Assembly: GCA_000934665.2 (NCBI GenBank)
Contig: KZ538737.1
Span: 1 to 50,817, forward strand
Length of the DNA stretch: 50,817 bases
Direction of reading: 5' to 3'
Source: Catajapyx aquilonaris
Taxonomy: Eukaryota
Positions within the stretch are counted from its first letter, which is position 1. Each line of letters starts with the position of its first letter. Shown piece after piece: positions 1,074 through 50,817 of this stretch. Below the pieces are notes generated by a model, which saw only the letters and a list, made by a program, of their open reading frames with translations, ran no database searches and was not told the DNA's origin. Both the position numbers and the translations under genes were made by a program.

Positions 1074-1994
1074 ATGATCAGGGCACTGTTGCGTGGCTGC
1101 TGGACTCACACTGCACGAGGAGCTGCGGCCGTACATGTCAGACGGGGACTGGTGGTGTCTCGTTACCATGCGGACCGGACGCCACAGCTCGTCACAGGGT
1201 GTGCCAGGAGGTTTTGCACCCAGCAGAACGGGTATTGCAAGCCGTTATGTGCACCGAGTACAGGTCATTAACCGCGCTTGTTCATGCAGCGCTTCATTGA
1301 GCGAGGTTGAGTATTCGCGCCTGGCCGAGGAGACGCTTGACTCCCTCTCGGAGTACTTCGACGAGTTGCTTCAGGACCTGAAGGAAGCGGACGTTGCTTA
1401 CGGGGTAATCAGGCAGCATTCTTATGCTTCACGTACGTATACTTCATTTGCTGGGTTGCTGGCATTTGCAGGATGGGGTGCTGACCGTCGTCTTGGGGCC
1501 AACCATCGGCACTTACGTTATAAACAAGCAGACGCCCAACAAGCAACTATGGCTCTCCTCGCCTTTAAGCGGACCTAAAAGGTATACCTCTATCGACACA
1601 TTTTCTGAGGCTGCGAAATAAATTTATTTATTTATTAGTAACTAATAATAAATTTTCTATATGCTAATCATTCATTATAAATTTTCTATTAGTTATTAAT
1701 GATAATCTATTTATTAGTTATTAATGATAATAATCTGATGTAGCGAATCGACCTGCTTCTAATAAGCTCGTTACTGTCGCAATATTGCAACAGTAAAACT
1801 GAAGGTGAGCCATATACAAAAATAGAGCAACACCTAGAGCAAAATTATCTTCTCAATGTTTCAGGTACGACTACATCGACAATCGCTGGGTGTACAAGCA
1901 CGACGGAATATCCCTTCATTCCTTTCTAACCAAGGAGATATCTGCTGCCTTAAACCGCTCGGTTGACTTCTCCCGCTGTGCGTACGGGAAGTAG
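1074..1994 (+). CDS. FXN: Frataxin (mitochondrial iron/Fe-S cluster assembly protein), ~170 aa
   Basis: Exons 1074-1231, 1290-1404, 1472-1581, 1865-1994, all GT-AG and phase-consistent. Arg-rich N-terminal targeting peptide, then [19 protein letters not shown]...DGVLTVVLG...[28 protein letters not shown]...[11 protein letters not shown] (frataxin/CyaY signature). Probable 5'UTR intron 966-1068. Confidence 0.96.
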
Positions 1995-2018: not shown

Positions 2019-5000
2019 ATGGAATCAGGCAAATTAATAGATGTAATTCAGGATGGCTTCCAGCGTGAGCGGAAAGAGTTCGAGGACACTGGGAAGTTGG
2101 AATCAGTATTTTTGTGCCATAAGGTTCGAGGAGGGCCATTGGACTACCCTGGGGCGATTTCACGAGCTGTTGCCGATGTTGCGAGCGGTTGGGAAGAGCA
2201 CTTTCAAGCGCTGTTTGTCCATCGGATTGGCAACAAGGGAAGCTCCCTGGACATGAACTCGATTCGGGTATGTTAGACGCTTGAAGGTGTCCAACCTGTT
2301 CTAAACTTTTGATCTCCAGGCGAGTGTGGATGATGCGGGAAGCACCGCGTCCATTGCGGCCATGGGCGACTCGGTTGCGAACCGAAGCCGCAGCAGCCGT
2401 TCTGGGGTAGCCAGCGAGGCTGACTTGGCGTCCGTAGTGGCCCAGTCGTGCCATATGGCCGAGGAGCATCTGAGCTTGCTGGCTAAGGATGCATCGGAGC
2501 GGGGAATCCTCGATGCCCTTCCGCTAGTGCTGGGAGGCGCCGTGCTTCTCCGCAACACCCTATGGTGCTATGAGGACTTCTGCAAAGGCTCGGATGACAC
2601 CACCGGAAAAGGCGATGGGATATTCAAACCAAGCTACAGGTTGGTTCGGTACCGACAATGTTTATCTGTAATCCGATCGCCGTGTTCACAGGCTAATGTG
2701 TGGACTTGCGGACGGTGTAGCCGAGCAGCTTCTGGAAGCGCAGTCTGCCCGTGTCGCCACATGCGTACTTGCCTCACCGGATTGCCAGCAGTGGGACGAC
2801 CCTCGGCCGTTCTTCGAAGGCGAACGAGGCTCCTACGCACTCCAAATGTGGTGGACGCACATGCAAGGTCTTCGCCAGGATCTAAGCGGCGCACTTCCGC
2901 CCAAAATATCGCAGCGGCTTCTCACCGCAATTTTAAATGAATCCCTGTCGATTTTAACGTCCCGGTACTGCCGAGCGTACCCATCGCAACACAGATGGCC
3001 GCAATATGTTAATGATCTTGTCGACTTGCTGTGGTGTTGCGGCGATCTGTTGCTGTGCTGTTCGTCATCGATGCGTCAGTTGGGCGGACGTGACGATGGC
3101 GTTGGCCGGGAAGGCAACAAGGCTCTAGCTGCAGTTCATGCTAAGTGCGACCTGCTCTTTGCGTTTCTGGCGCTGTTAGGCCCGTCACTCGGAGCTGTCT
3201 GTAAGGTAAGGACGCTCACTTTCGAACGGTCCTCTTAATTACAATTAATCAGAGCTTCCAGAAGGGCGTCTCCGAGTCGGTTTTGACTCACCGACCTGAC
3301 CGCCGGCCGACGTATCCGCCGTGGTTGACTATCCTGCGACCTGAACTGTTCAGGACACAACCTGACGGACAGCTGACTCCTGAAGCGGACTTGTACCTAG
3401 AGACGGCTTTACTTGAAGCACAACCCGAGCCGCTTTGGGCGCTCATGATTAAGGTACATTTGTTTCTTATTGTCGGCTCTATTTAATTAGTGTCGTTTAC
3501 AGGTGCTGATGAGCCACGGTGCAATGCTGACGAAGCTGATCCTCAGCACCTTAGCAGAAAGGCAGTGCGACCAATGCTGCGTTACAATGTCCAATGAAGT
3601 GCCAAGTCCGCGGTGTTCACGGTATATGTGCGGAGACGGCGGCGGCGTTTGCGTCGTTAAGGAGAAATGCTTATGCCACACTGTCTGTTCCGCTCTAATG
3701 TACCTGCTGGTCCACACCCAGAAGCGACGAGAGGTCGTACAGGCGGTGGTCCGGCCCGTTCTGGGGCAGGTTAAGGAGTAAGTACTGCACAGTCGAGTCC
3801 AGTTGAGGATACTAAGCATCTTAGTCCACAGCTGGTCGATATTGGACAAGTCGCAAGTGTGGAATACCCGCCGGCCATCCTGGTATCGCGCTTTGACCGA
3901 CTTGGTTGAGCCGTACTTGGAAGCGGGGATACTCGGGTTGGTTCTAGACGAGGAGTGGAGTGAGGAGCGGGATACGGATGTCCCGCGAGCTGTAACCGCA
4001 CTGATGTCAAGTCTCGGGGAGGCGGCTCCGTCACTTCCGCCGTTACTTCCGCATTTGCTGGCGCTTTTAGATGACCTAGCGCCGCCGGATGTGAAGCCGT
4101 TGGGTGGCAGTTGCGGCGTGCAGGTCATGGCATCGTCGCTGTACTCCCTACTGAACGATATGGGCCGAGTGGAGGAGCTAGTCGGAGCTGCGTTGGGCGA
4201 AGGCGATAAGGATCTGCTCATTGCGGTTGCGGAACGGTTGTGCCACCTGGACGCTGAAGTCGGTTTGGGCGAGCAGATGCAGGAGGTCAGACGCCAGCTT
4301 CGGATGGGGTAAGCCCACGTGAATGTGATTCCATCGTAATGTGTTTAATCACGGACATTTCCAGTGCGGAGGAGGCCAACTGGGAGGAGATCCACTTCGA
4401 GGACCTAAGCAGCGACGATCCCGAGGCCATGTCCATCGCAGAGGTCATGGCGGACTGGGTCCTCTCCGAGGAGCGGGGCAAGATGGCCATGCAGACCCTC
4501 CACTGGTTCCTGGTCTCCAACCTGGCCTGGGTCAGAGAAGCCCTGGGGTTGACCTCCGCCGGTCACCGAGGCTCCTCCGGGACGATGCTGCACCTGCACG
4601 TGGAGAAGGCCAAGGCTCCCACCCTCCAGATGTACCAGTGGATCGGAGACAGGCATTTCAACGAGGTGAGGCTGCCATGGTACATATGATGCCATGGTAC
4701 AAGTTGCTATGCTAACCCATTGCCGAGCAAAACCATTGCTGTGTGTAAACTGCTGCCATGCAAACTTTGTTGCCATTTTACGTGTTTCCATGCTAACATG
4801 TTGCAATTGCAAACTGTTGACATGCTAAGCTGTTTCCATGCTAACCCATTGCCATATGCTAGCATGTTGCCATGCTAAACAAAACTGTTTCCATGCTGAC
4901 CTGTTGCTATGCTAAACCATCGCCATGCTAACCTGTTGTCATACCAACCGATTGCCATGCTAAAATGTTTCCATGCTAACATGTTGCCATGCAAACCTTT

Positions 5001-5653
5001 GCCATGCTGACCTGTTGCTAATGCTCCACTGTTGCATTGATAAACCTGTTGGCATGCTAAACAGTTGTTGCCATACTAATTGTTGCCATGCTAACTTTGT
5101 TGCCATGCTGATGACCTGTTGCCAATGCTAAACTCTAACCATGCTGACCCATTTCCATGCTTACCTGTTGCCATGCTAAACTGCTTTTATGCTGAACTGT
5201 TGCTATGCTAACATGTTGCCATGATAAAATGTTTCCATGCTAAAACCTGTTGCAATGCTAAATCAATATTGCTATGCTGCCATGTTTGCAATATGCTAAG
5301 CTGTGTCCATGACGAACTCTTGCCATGCTGACCAGTTGCCGTATGTTACTTTGTTGCCATGGTACATGTTGCCATGGTACATGTTGCCACGCTGGCCGAA
5401 CTTGGACAAACAAACAAGCTCTTTGTCTTTTTATCCGCGTATGAGTATAGAGATTGTTTTTGCCGCGTTCCAGGTCCTGGCAGGCACTTTCCAGGTGGAC
5501 TGGCCTCTGATCCTCCAGACCAAGATGGGCCTGAGCAAGGACTTTGTCCAGAGGGTGATCCAGCACAGGTGGGAGCTGCATGGGGACGCACAGCTCAACA
5601 AGTCCGACCAGGAGATGCTCCAGACCCTGATGGCCTCCGTCGGGGAGGAATAG
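2019..5653 (+). CDS. KIAA0825: KIAA0825-like protein (DUF4495 family), ~838 aa
   Basis: Exons 2019-2267, 2320-2639, 2692-3205, 3253-3453, 3503-3777, 3832-4308, 4365-4665, 5474-5653, all GT-AG and phase-consistent. WDDPRPFFEGERGSYALQMW...LPPKISQRLLTAILNESLSILTSRYCRAYPS matches the conserved core of KIAA0825 as I recall it. The start codon is the least certain part. Confidence 0.85.
4670..5392. repeat. Intronic satellite of ~16-18-bp units (TGTTGCCATGCTAAC)
   Basis: Dozens of degenerate copies fill most of intron 7 (4666-5473) of the KIAA0825-like gene. Confidence 0.9.
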
Positions 5654-6658
5654 GTCTGCTGCGGCTTTAATTTTTTTTAAAAAAGGTTGTTTCTAACTAT
5701 GCCGTCGGATGTTGTGCGGAAAATTTGTTGTTGAATTTCTTTGCTCTTGTTGGACGTATATGTTGTGCTACATGTTCACCTATGAAGCCTCTACCAACTG
5801 TAGTAGACCCACTCTTCCCTTCTACTGTAAGCGCATCAAGTGGTCTCGATCACTTCTGTTTATTAGTAAATATTAGCTGTATTTTACCACACTTCAACAA
5901 TAGTCAGTGAAATCGCCTGTAGCCATCACGTATTTAAAAAATTGTTGAGAATTTACACTCATTTGTCGTCAATTTATCTCCATAAAAATTAATTTCAGGC
6001 GAGTGTCCTGAGAAAACCTGCATTGACATAGAGAGAACCCATGCTCAATCAGCGGTTACTGTGCTGAAAAAAATAGCCTGGATACTAGGACAATAATACG
6101 AATTTTTTATGCGCAGCATTACATAAATATGAGCCGTATAAACATTTAAAAAAATTATAATGTAAATTATTATACACACCATGACCGTGCATGATTGAAA
6201 ATGTCCCGCCATCTTTGATGTAGACGCCTCTTCTTATTACACAATCGTCAGTCGTTAATTATTAAATTAGTTAATATATTAAAAATTAATCCGTCGTAAA
6301 AAAATATTATGACCCATTTAAATTATTAAAATGCGATTTACATTTAGTGTCGCTTTACAGCCGCTCGCAATTCGTGGCGCTTCAGTCGAATAGAACGCGG
6401 CAAGTACATCCAGCAAATGAATCGACAATTTTTTTGCCTAATTACGCCGCTTAATTACCCGTCTGTCGCGTCCTAATTAAACTACAGGTTTGTACGCAAC
6501 AGCTAATTGCACAAGCGCACTTTTATGCATTGCAAATATACCAATTATAATTGAATTAGAATCCTGGCAAAGCACGTGCCGGGACTTTAGACATAATATG
6601 TGCACAGAAAAATTAATTAATATTTGTTATTAATTAATTAAAAGTTCGTTTCCAGCAA

Positions 6659-7625
6659 ATGGAAGTTCCAATATTTTCTAATGTGAAGGAGGAGCAATTC
6701 AGAGAGGAAGTTGCGGCCAAGAGAATTCCGGTTGTCATACGTGGGGCGGACGTAGGTTCTTGCGTAGCCAAATGGACGCCGGAATATCTGGAGAGGAAGC
6801 TTGGTTCGAAGGAGGTTAAAGTTCATGAGTCAGTAGAAGCGCGCTTGGATTTTGTGCAGAAAAATTTCAAGTACGTTACGATGCGATTTGGTGACCTGAT
6901 GAAGGAAGCTGTCGCGTCCCGGAGATACTACTACTTGAGAAGCCTCGGAGCTGATCCGAGAGGACGGGATGTGGCCCAGTTCGAATCGCAGTATCCGGAG
7001 ATTGCTGATGACCTGAAAATTCCTTGCTTTTATCCGTCGGACTCCAAATTTTCAAGCGTGTTTAGAGCTGGATCCGCAAACGTGCAGCTTTGGACTCACT
7101 ACGATGTGATGGACAACGTTTTGATTCAGGTCACCGGACGCAAGCGGGTCGTCCTATTCTCACCGGATGATGCGTTGAACCTGTACTTAAACGGAGACAA
7201 ATCTGAGGTTAAGGACATTGATAATCCGGATTTGGAAAAGTTCCCGAGGTTCTCGCAAGTGAAGCGGTTTGAATGTCGGCTTGAACCTGGCGACATTTTA
7301 TTCATCCCCGCTCTTTGGTTTCATAACGTGACCTGCCTCGAGTTTGGCGTTGCGGTGAACGTGTTCTGGCGACACTTGGACGCTAGTATGTACGATAAAA
7401 AGGACAGCTACGGGAATAAGGATTTGGTGCCTGCATCGTTGGTAAGAATGCTTTGGAAAAATAAAAGTCAAATTACGGATCATGTGTTATTTGCAGGCAC
7501 TCGCTACGTTGGACCGAGCTCTGAAGCAGCTAGAGCTTTTACCAGACGATTACAAGAAATTTTACGCTAGACGTATGATATCTAGGATAGAGCATAGAAT
7601 GGGAATTAATACGTGCGATGCATAA
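6659..7625 (+). CDS. TYW5: tRNA wybutosine-synthesizing protein 5 (JmjC/cupin hydroxylase), ~303 aa
   Basis: Exons 6659-7441 and 7497-7625 (55-nt GT-AG intron). JmjC motifs LWTHYDVMDN and LEPGDILFIPALWFHNV; TYW5-typical YYLRSLGADPR, DSYGNKD and C-terminal LDRALKQLELLPDDYKKFYARRMI. AATAAA at 7641. Likely 5'UTR intron 6488-6655. Confidence 0.95.
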
Positions 7626-49396: not shown

Positions 49397-50817
49397 TCAT
49401 ATTCGACCAGGCGTTATTCGACAAAAATGAGCAATTTCCGCCGCCAGTACCACTACACAGCCCAGCAAGCCCAGAATCCACATGTTGAAGATGGCTCCCA
49501 ACTTGTCCATTGTCATCACTTCATCTCGAACGTATGTCTTGGCAGCGATCTCTTCCGCCTCTAGGACCCTCCTCAGGTTGCGGAGGAAGTTCATGTACTT
49601 CTCGTGATTGATCCAAGTTTCTAATAAGTTGGTGCCCACAACCACGTCCACCACTTTTCTTGTCAAGTGAAACAGTTGGGTTTGGCCTTTTGCAGTACCG
49701 GCAAAGGTATACGCAGAGAATCTTTCTTCTTGGAGCCATTGAAGGTTCAGGGTCCCATCACTGCTCGTGTGAAGATACGTTTCTCTCTCTAGGAGAACGT
49801 TGAAACCAATGCAGACAACGTCGTCATCTCGAGTTTTACGCAGACAATTCTGGGTAGTACCTCCCATTTTAATGCACTTACACATCTCAACCACAACGGG
49901 ATCCTGAGCCGTTTTACAGTAGTGACTTAGAAGGAGATAGTTTAACATATCCCCTTCCATATTCCAGTTTGAATATATTATTTCTTGGAAAGTGGTTGGA
50001 ACAAATTCTCTCGGGGGCCATGTCAGGAAGGACACTAGTTTGGCCCTGTACCCAGTGGTGATCACCATGACAAACATGAGCATACATGCAGTGAAGGTAA
50101 TTGCGAAGTGTCTTCCTGTCAGATTCTCATTCTGCTCCATCAGAGTTCGCAAAATGAGGCCGACTGATTGTGAAAATGACAGAGTACTGGTCGAGTTACG
50201 TCTCCGTTTGGATATATAAAATGAGGCGATAAACAGTGTGATTAGACTGAATGCAATCAAGCCCCAGACCAAGAGTGGATAAGGCATGAAGATCACCTTC
50301 CAGGTCACAATTCTTCTAGGGATCCTTGCCAAGCCCGTTCCAAAGGCGAATATGTAAGGTTGGGGAATATTAAGGAATGAGTACGATTCTTCCGAAGCTA
50401 AAATGCATGGTAAGGTATCGGTCTTGTTCTGCACCAGACCACCCACCAACCCTCCCCAGGTTCCGTTTGGGTAACGAGAGTCCAGTTCCACTCGAAATTC
50501 CTCCGTAGTGTACTCCATTTTTCCGCCTATAGCACCTTCCGAAAATATTGACATTCTCTGGTACAAGTCAAGAGAAATCTCACCCTCAGCCTCCTTCTGC
50601 TTCCTCGCAGCTGGCACGTCATTGTCTACGTAGAAACGAACCCTAAATACCCTTCCGTTCATCCTCTTGACGTCGTAGTCTCGAAAGAAGAGATTCACCA
50701 TGCCTCCACCACCGTCATCGGATGGATCGAACACTCCGAGATGCAGTGTTTGTGGGTACCCTCCTTGTGCGCAGTAGAAGCAGACCGTGTCCACCTTGAT
50801 CCGCCCATCGGGGCCAT
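49397..50817 (-). CDS. Divergent ionotropic receptor (variant iGluR chemoreceptor), intronless in window, 5' end off-window
   Basis: The frame stays open to the window edge. S1 NGTWGGLVGGLVQNKTD, M1 LLVWGLIAFSLITLFIA, pore region LILRTLMEQ, M2 ending GYRAKLVSFLT (SYTANLAAFLT equivalent), final TM LGAIFNMWILGLLGCVVVLAAEI. Confidence 0.88.
   Translation of the reverse strand, partial: GPDGRIKVDTVCFYCAQGGYPQTLHLGVFDPSDDGGGGMVNLFFRDYDVKRMNGRVFRVRFYVDNDVPAARKQKEAEGEISLDLYQRMSIFSEGAIGGKMEYTTEEFRVELDSRYPNGTWGGLVGGLVQNKTDTLPCILASEESYSFLNIPQPYIFAFGTGLARIPRRIVTWKVIFMPYPLLVWGLIAFSLITLFIASFYISKRRRNSTSTLSFSQSVGLILRTLMEQNENLTGRHFAITFTACMLMFVMVITTGYRAKLVSFLTWPPREFVPTTFQEIIYSNWNMEGDMLNYLLLSHYCKTAQDPVVVEMCKCIKMGGTTQNCLRKTRDDDVVCIGFNVLLERETYLHTSSDGTLNLQWLQEERFSAYTFAGTAKGQTQLFHLTRKVVDVVVGTNLLETWINHEKYMNFLRNLRRVLEAEEIAAKTYVRDEVMTMDKLGAIFNMWILGLLGCVVVLAAEIAHFCRITPGRI

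Follow-up and report, generated by a model that had tools for sequence, protein, structure and literature searches.

The frataxin gene of Catajapyx aquilonaris and the KIAA0825-like gene directly downstream of it are best read as a dicistronic-type locus to which, in this lineage, an internal first exon may have been added within the last frataxin intron, giving a monocistronic KIAA0825 mRNA. We place the probability of this combined reading at roughly one half; this and the other degrees of confidence expressed here are judgements, and none was computed. A sequence-only reading of the locus had proposed that a promoter in the frataxin intron drives a non-coding exon spliced to the last frataxin exon. 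Three lines of evidence favored that proposal, namely the start of KIAA0825 at position 2019, the continuity in RNA of the exon that begins at 1865, and a splice donor that beats chance. However, the occurrence of the same gene pair in insects makes the dicistronic-type unit the basic layout, to which the intronic exon is at best an add-on.

The DNA examined was contig KZ538737.1 (50,817 nt, the whole of which is referred to here as the window), one contig from a 286-Mb genome. On its plus strand it carries, in order, frataxin, a KIAA0825-like gene of the DUF4495 family, TYW5, and ELL. Genome searches found a single locus apiece for the frataxin and DUF4495 families. The best matches to TYW5 were from polyneopteran insects (56-60%), and those to the DUF4495 protein were from insects (about 35-47%). 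Two minus-strand stretches were also noted at the ends of the window. At positions 1-420, tandem repeats that include open frames lie head to head with frataxin, with an acceptor-like site near 415. At positions 49400-50815, inspection by eye suggested that a long open frame may encode a membrane protein similar to ionotropic receptors.

The frataxin model encodes 170 aa from the ATG at 1074, or 178 aa from the in-frame ATG at 947 in an open exon model. In the longer version, the 3' end of exon 1 would occupy 947-965 and precede a donor GAG/GTAATT at 966, as judged from sequence. Exon 2 (1069-1231) agrees with the open model, with an RNA contig at 1067-1230 and with an RNA joint at 1232-1289, and its ATG at 1074 opens an arginine-rich, presequence-like N-terminus. 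Exon 3 (1290-1404) matches PF01491, as does exon 4 (1472-1581; E 7.9e-16), which is also covered by an RNA contig. The last intron (1582-1864) begins with a weak donor, AAG/GTATAC, and is followed by the last coding segment (1865-1994), which ends in the stop TAG at 1992-1994. The sequence-only reading had labeled this last intron as intron 3; the label becomes intron 4 once the intron at 966-1068 is counted from the in-frame ATG at 947.

The KIAA0825-like gene (2019-5653, plus strand) has 8 coding exons, encodes 838 aa, and is partially covered by RNA. Its ATG lies 24 nt past the frataxin stop, and the two are separate conserved ORFs on the same strand. An ATG stands immediately 3' of the frataxin stop and opens a 6-codon upstream ORF (uORF; 1995-2015) with a poor context (T at -3). 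Frataxin, this uORF, and KIAA0825 share one reading frame after splicing, with two TAG stops, at 1992 and 2013, between the genes (1074-2267). A read-through fusion of the two proteins was considered and is unsupported; it would be in frame, yet the two TAG stops intervene. The last KIAA0825 intron (4666-5473, 808 nt) is packed with degenerate copies of a short, nearly palindromic word that resembles an RFX X-box.

The position of the KIAA0825 start determines much of what follows. The ATG at 2019 has a strong context, with A at -3 and G at +4, and opens an 83-aa first exon whose N-terminus aligns with residue 4 of insect homologues; this first coding exon matched 44 of 188 homologous proteins. 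The start at 2019 is thus supported by the insect homologues, on sequence comparison. With such a start, a separate KIAA0825 promoter could not fit between the two genes and would have to lie within frataxin, and since it lies only 24 nt past the frataxin stop, the KIAA0825 leader must derive from frataxin sequence somehow. Neither AATAAA nor ATTAAA is present in 1995-2700, and among the 12 hexamers tested there only AATAGA at 2036, a weak signal, was found.

RNA evidence came from a single run, X1, for which there is no library record, and consisted of 4 contigs with GT..AG splicing. Depths were 2.3-4.2 at the 5' side and 15.8 over 3904-4667, values unsuited to ranking genes. Three joints were recovered in all (1232-1289, 1582-1864, and 4309-4364), each of them GT..AG. 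One contig of 215 nt joins 1533-1581 to 1865-2030, with the 283-nt intron spliced out whole, crosses the frataxin stop, and covers 12 nt of the KIAA0825 ORF. The last frataxin exon is therefore continuous with the KIAA0825 start in RNA. The contig is an assembly and not a molecule, and from it we infer a single long molecule that carries both ORFs. In the dicistronic-type unit proposed here, RNA from the frataxin promoter would splice 1581^1865 and continue past the stop into KIAA0825. At the other end of the gene, a donor-like site of 5.3 bits abuts the KIAA0825 stop and an acceptor-like site lies near 5998, which may mark an intron in the 3' UTR (5654-6300); RNA contig 4 has 452 letters beyond those placed on the window.

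The very short intergenic gap would also suit an operon resolved by spliced-leader trans-splicing at the AG just before ATG 2019. We consider this highly improbable. The AG in question (2014-2015) scores -1.9 bits, the contig crosses it unbroken and with no loose end, and hexapods are not known to use a spliced leader.

The same gene pair was encountered in two other settings. A protein of Timema californicum (P0272; CAD7574968.1, 1044 aa) has a PF01491 match at 75-118, followed by DUF4495. The PF01491 match scored 24 bits against a cut-off of 21.3 and spans half a frataxin domain; P0272 is probably a chimeric gene model of adjacent genes. Of 209 DUF4495 homologues, 1 carried a piece of frataxin. 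When the frataxin part of P0272 was used as the query for more frataxin-DUF4495 chimeras, none of 8 candidates among proteins of 574-1827 aa scored. A search with the DUF4495 exon found no longer homologues, and a prokaryote genome collection gave no match. In the second setting, a metagenome locus (L009), an insect-like KIAA0825 orthologue is immediately preceded by frataxin in the same orientation. The frataxin end and the KIAA0825 ATG are separated there by 295 nt that lack AATAAA and ATTAAA. Within L009 8147-8447, a donor-like site lies 7 nt past the frataxin stop and an acceptor lies 9 nt before the KIAA0825 ATG; a possible 279-nt intron between them would leave a stop-to-start spacer of 16 nt.

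An intron matching 1582-1864 in position is absent from frataxin of L009. Since the tandem is present in L009 without this intron, the dicistronic-type layout is older than the donor at 1805 described below, and we hold this layout to be well supported, with high confidence. Frataxin and the KIAA0825-like gene would accordingly form an old head-to-tail unit. No frataxin was seen upstream of the KIAA0825 ATG at two further metagenome loci, L017 and L019, in 2,977 and 4,885 nt of upstream sequence, respectively, so that frataxin was missing at 2 of the 3 metagenome loci whose sequence extends over 2.9 kb on the upstream side of that ATG. The remainder of the 17 metagenome loci were uninformative as to synteny, as 13 lack the KIAA0825 start and another, L008, has 43 nt upstream. 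By these sequences, the pair appears to have been loosened or lost in some lineages.

Within the last frataxin intron of Catajapyx, the sequence-only reading had pointed to a second strong donor, AAG/GTGAGC, with its GT at 1805-1806 and 60 nt from the shared acceptor AG at 1863-1864, in an intron of 283 nt. These coordinates and lengths were correct, and the strength of the site held up on scoring. Introns of 47-67 nt had been given as the size of most short introns, and 13 of the 19 annotated window introns do fall in that range. The description of the 283-nt intron as anomalously long was right as to its being long, but it is not unique; 6 of the 19 window introns exceed 100 nt, and ELL has one of 278 nt.

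Donors were scored with a matrix derived from the 19 donors of the window, most of whose introns were inferred from open frames and 3 of which were seen in RNA. The 1805 donor scored 9.67 bits, in comparison with 1.1-10.8 bits for real donors under leave-one-out scoring (median 8.5, n = 19) and 4.4 bits, also leave-one-out (range 4.4-6.0), for the donor used at 1582. Across 26,865 nt of intronic ELL sequence, 4 sites reached the 1805 score. The chance of a donor as strong as this one was 0.3% in the 21-nt slot that lies 47-67 nt from the acceptor and 4% anywhere in the 283 nt. Among shuffles of the intron, such a donor appeared anywhere in 10 of 3000 and in the slot in 0 of 3000. None of the 5 other long introns of the window had a comparable donor 45-70 nt from its acceptor, the best being 4.3 bits. 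Even though the 19-donor matrix is small and the 1805 site was chosen after the fact, the site exceeds what chance would easily produce; the feature itself is real, and it probably has a functional role. Origin of the intron by tandem duplication was also considered and rejected, as 6 local-alignment tests at the DNA level fell within shuffles and the protein-level test was reached by 124 of 3000. The intron start and the next exon start were alike at 12 of 20 letters, the highest value among the 19 introns, and 1580-1598 and 1863-1881 were alike at 14 of 19.

The main rival to an internal first exon is that the 1805 donor is cryptic and silent. The locus would then be a dicistronic unit only, with KIAA0825 translated by reinitiation or internal entry, and the donor would be a chance look-alike silenced by RNA structure. 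The sole joint seen at this intron is the whole-intron joint 1581^1865, and the tandem is conserved where the 1582-1864 intron is absent. A feature of the 1805 type is not conserved at L009 either, where donor-like sites come no closer than 119 nt to the acceptor of its own last intron. In addition, folding predictions closed the 1805 donor in all contexts tested (P(unpaired) approximately 0.2), and the phrase 'all di/polycistronic' occurs 104 times in FlyBase File S1 (PMC4528330). On the other hand, such predictions call several real donors closed too, and a donor of this strength at minimal-intron distance arises only about 0.3% of the time. The 1805 donor also outscores the donor in use at 1582, and selection would be expected to remove such a site if it served no purpose. 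The joint 1804^1865 was not among the 3 joints of X1; no contig of this data set, the depth of which was 2.4, covers 1600-1804, and contigs drop rare forms. We regard a dicistron with a silent 1805 donor as a credible but unlikely explanation, and an internal start for KIAA0825 as the most straightforward role that a strong donor so placed could have.

The preferred reading, with its internal first exon, would operate as follows. A second transcription start, perhaps at about 1690-1790, would lie in the last frataxin intron of this lineage, and a short non-coding exon from that start would splice 1804^1865 through removal of a candidate 60-nt intron (1805-1864, plus strand). The resulting leader would be about 190 nt long and free of ATGs. 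Scanning ribosomes would bypass the weak uORF ATG at 1995 and initiate at 2019, where the ATG context is strong. One and the same exon, beginning at 1865, would thereby encode part of frataxin in one mRNA and belong to the KIAA0825 leader in the other. For this promoter, this exon, and this use of the 1865 exon, the argument is drawn from sequence features.

As the sequence-only reading had noted, the intron contains an AT-rich block followed by a GC-balanced segment; GC content was 0.13 over 1626-1735 and 0.41 over 1736-1804. The first of these is the candidate promoter; the second, on the plus strand, is the candidate for the non-coding exon with which a monocistronic KIAA0825 mRNA would begin. 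Three local copies of a 26-nt unit account for part of the AT block. In the genome search, the block resembled AT-rich tandem sequence elsewhere, with matches limited to low-complexity AT repeats, and its 20-nt unit occurred at the 1626-1735 block only. Being partly repeat-derived and 13% GC, the block is no promoter evidence by itself. A TATA-like word at 1676 and Inr-like words at 1668, 1689, and 1714, identified with consensus motifs, matched the chance expectation in AT-rich DNA; no convincing core-promoter layout was found in the intron. A comparison of promoter motifs among four 5' regions yielded a single shared 6-mer, which itself occurs 17 times in the window. The candidate exon segment (1736-1804, 41% GC) is unique in the genome and contains a 26-nt palindrome at 1771-1796. 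A transposon origin for 1735-1864 was rejected, no second copy having been found in the genome. Further along the window, the TYW5 region at 6250-6660 combines an AT-rich block and a CpG-rich stretch with an initiator-like word (6382), a donor (6488), and an acceptor (6655); this is likely a promoter with a non-coding first exon, similar in build to the 1582-1864 candidate.

The segment could instead be an intron-hosted box C/D snoRNA at 1735-1802, to which the adjoining donor would be incidental. A C-like box at 1735 and a CTGA at 1799, a length of 68 nt, and an end 62 nt before the acceptor are in keeping with one. Against it, a search of Rfam gave no match up to E 10, a terminal stem was absent on inspection, and a strong hairpin covers the would-be guide. 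The chances of a snoRNA here seem to us slight in the extreme. A search of the assembly for rRNA found fragments only.

Translation of KIAA0825 was considered from the upstream ATGs of each mRNA. The absence of an ATG in any frame of 1865-1994, noted in the sequence-only reading, was confirmed. An ATG-free 130-nt exon has a probability of approximately 0.09 (0.095 in synonymous shuffles; 31 of 350 coding 130-nt windows lacked an ATG), and it gives mild support. The mRNA from the frataxin promoter has six ATGs before 1995, and out-of-frame ATGs in frataxin numbered 4 against 5.5 expected, which is no depletion. With six upstream ATGs and no out-of-frame depletion, leaky scanning through frataxin to KIAA0825 is implausible and was set aside. 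The frataxin-promoter mRNA would thus translate KIAA0825 poorly unless ribosomes reinitiate, and reinitiation after the frataxin stop is possible given the order of stop, ATG, 6-codon frame, and ATG 2019. An RNA from 1740 on that is spliced 1804^1865 would contain a single ATG ahead of 2019, namely the one in weak context at 1995.

The 1805 donor might also serve as an alternative donor within frataxin-promoter RNA, where it would extend exon 4 by 223 nt and either lower frataxin or shift output to KIAA0825. No new promoter or acceptor would be needed, the extended exon 4 was computed to stop frataxin at 1619 after 140 aa, and PMC4528330 includes FlyBase dicistronic loci, Tim10 and CG7071, with a splice variant that disrupts the 5' coding sequence. 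However, the extension would bring in four extra ATGs (1661, 1699, 1724, and 1738), which would be no help to KIAA0825 translation, and 1600-1804 is without contig cover in the low-depth X1 run. We consider this use of the donor rather unlikely.

A poison cassette exon, at 1744-1804 or 1794-1804, had been offered as the alternative in the sequence-only reading. Stops at 1760 and 1927 would indeed truncate frataxin, and branch-like words lie 22 and 34 nt upstream of the two AGs. Their acceptors, however, reach 0.0 and 1.1 bits, at the low end of the real range; of the 19 real acceptors, 17 have at least 2.8 bits and the other two -1.5 and 1.0. With such acceptor scores, a poison cassette is very unlikely.

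If an internal first exon is used, frataxin pre-mRNA must avoid a donor stronger than its own; speculatively, the donor may be hidden by base pairing to exon 4 or by a hairpin nearby. A stretch of exon 4 (1548-1559, plus strand) is complementary to the donor region 1803-1814 at 11 of 12 pairs (-17.7 kcal/mol), a value reached by 2 of 300 shuffles, in a model that depends on RNA length; an upstream complement stronger than that of 1805 was found for 1 of 18 real donors. One could envisage a splice switch that depends on the start site, in which the conserved W-L-S codons of exon 4 pair with the nascent 1805 donor and hide it in frataxin-promoter RNA only. The weak 1582 donor would then win and leave frataxin intact, and an intron-started RNA, having no exon 4 arm, would have a free 1805 donor and yield monocistronic KIAA0825 mRNA. 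For an RNA ending 25 nt past the donor, opening 1805 was predicted to cost 11.0 kcal/mol with exon 4 present and 3.5 in an RNA begun at 1740; the difference of 7.4 was the largest of 20 donors and was reached by 6 of 120 shuffles. With the RNA 20 nt longer, ending 45 nt past the donor, the difference was 0.4 because a local hairpin takes over. In an RNA starting at 1740, moreover, the donor was predicted to be paired once the RNA extends past 1835, and the local hairpin at 1740-1830 was itself unremarkable (z -0.98). Masking of the 1805 donor by exon 4 is best taken as a lead from modeling, and the full switch is doubtful. If true, it would uncouple an ancient hexapod frataxin-KIAA0825 dicistron via RNA structure alone.

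In several hexapod lineages, the arrangement has kept an essential iron-sulfur gene and a gene about which little is understood together in head-to-tail order. It matters for annotation, as the gene pair has already yielded one chimeric protein record, and a knock-down of insect frataxin could affect both genes. Should the internal exon prove real, the downstream cistron has gained a promoter inside an essential neighbor and left that neighbor unbroken. A literature search, which extended to few subscription journals, found no papers naming both frataxin and KIAA0825. One report (PMC13596269) ties KIAA0825 to receptor trafficking. We observed that the features of P0272 in the ESM Atlas, beyond its own cluster, lie nearest to helical tethering subunits (Syndetin, COG, VPS51, and exocyst; 0.85-0.90). 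As a lead, these matches fit the trafficking role described in PMC13596269.

Drosophila provides a catalogue for comparison. Crosby et al. 2015 (PMC4528330) report 159 dicistronic pairs and 350 polycistronic genes, and describe monocistronic transcripts of the 3' gene as usually arising from an alternative downstream promoter; in FlyBase File S1 of that paper, 'alternative promoter' occurs 101 times among the 350 genes. Gaps listed there include 43 nt for CG6294/CG6299, the shortest stop-to-start gap among the rows examined, 78 nt for CG31976, and 303 nt for Adh/Adhr. Fly frataxin was not found in File S1 under the identifiers searched (PMC4528330). The Catajapyx locus is like these loci in that unrelated genes lie head to tail with a gap in the listed range, RNA is continuous across the gap, and the downstream gene could be freed by a second promoter. 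The difference is that the second promoter and exon of Catajapyx are deduced from one splice site.

In section 8 and File S2 of the same paper (PMC4528330), CG17724/seq/Kdm4B exemplifies coding exons of one gene serving as UTR exons of another. The Catajapyx candidate is like these FlyBase 'complex/atypical overlap' genes, as an exon would be coding in one mRNA and untranslated in the other, with a shared acceptor. The FlyBase genes often share a promoter, whereas the second Catajapyx mRNA would start inside the last intron of the upstream gene. Operons of C. elegans include some with internal promoters and, by a cited title, one that encodes frataxin (PMC5025045). These operons are resolved by SL trans-splicing, of which there is no sign at the Catajapyx locus, but the two are alike in that an internal promoter would uncouple the downstream gene from the first. 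Taken together, these comparisons indicate that the mechanism is of a type already catalogued in flies, and that the new part is the conserved frataxin-KIAA0825 pair.
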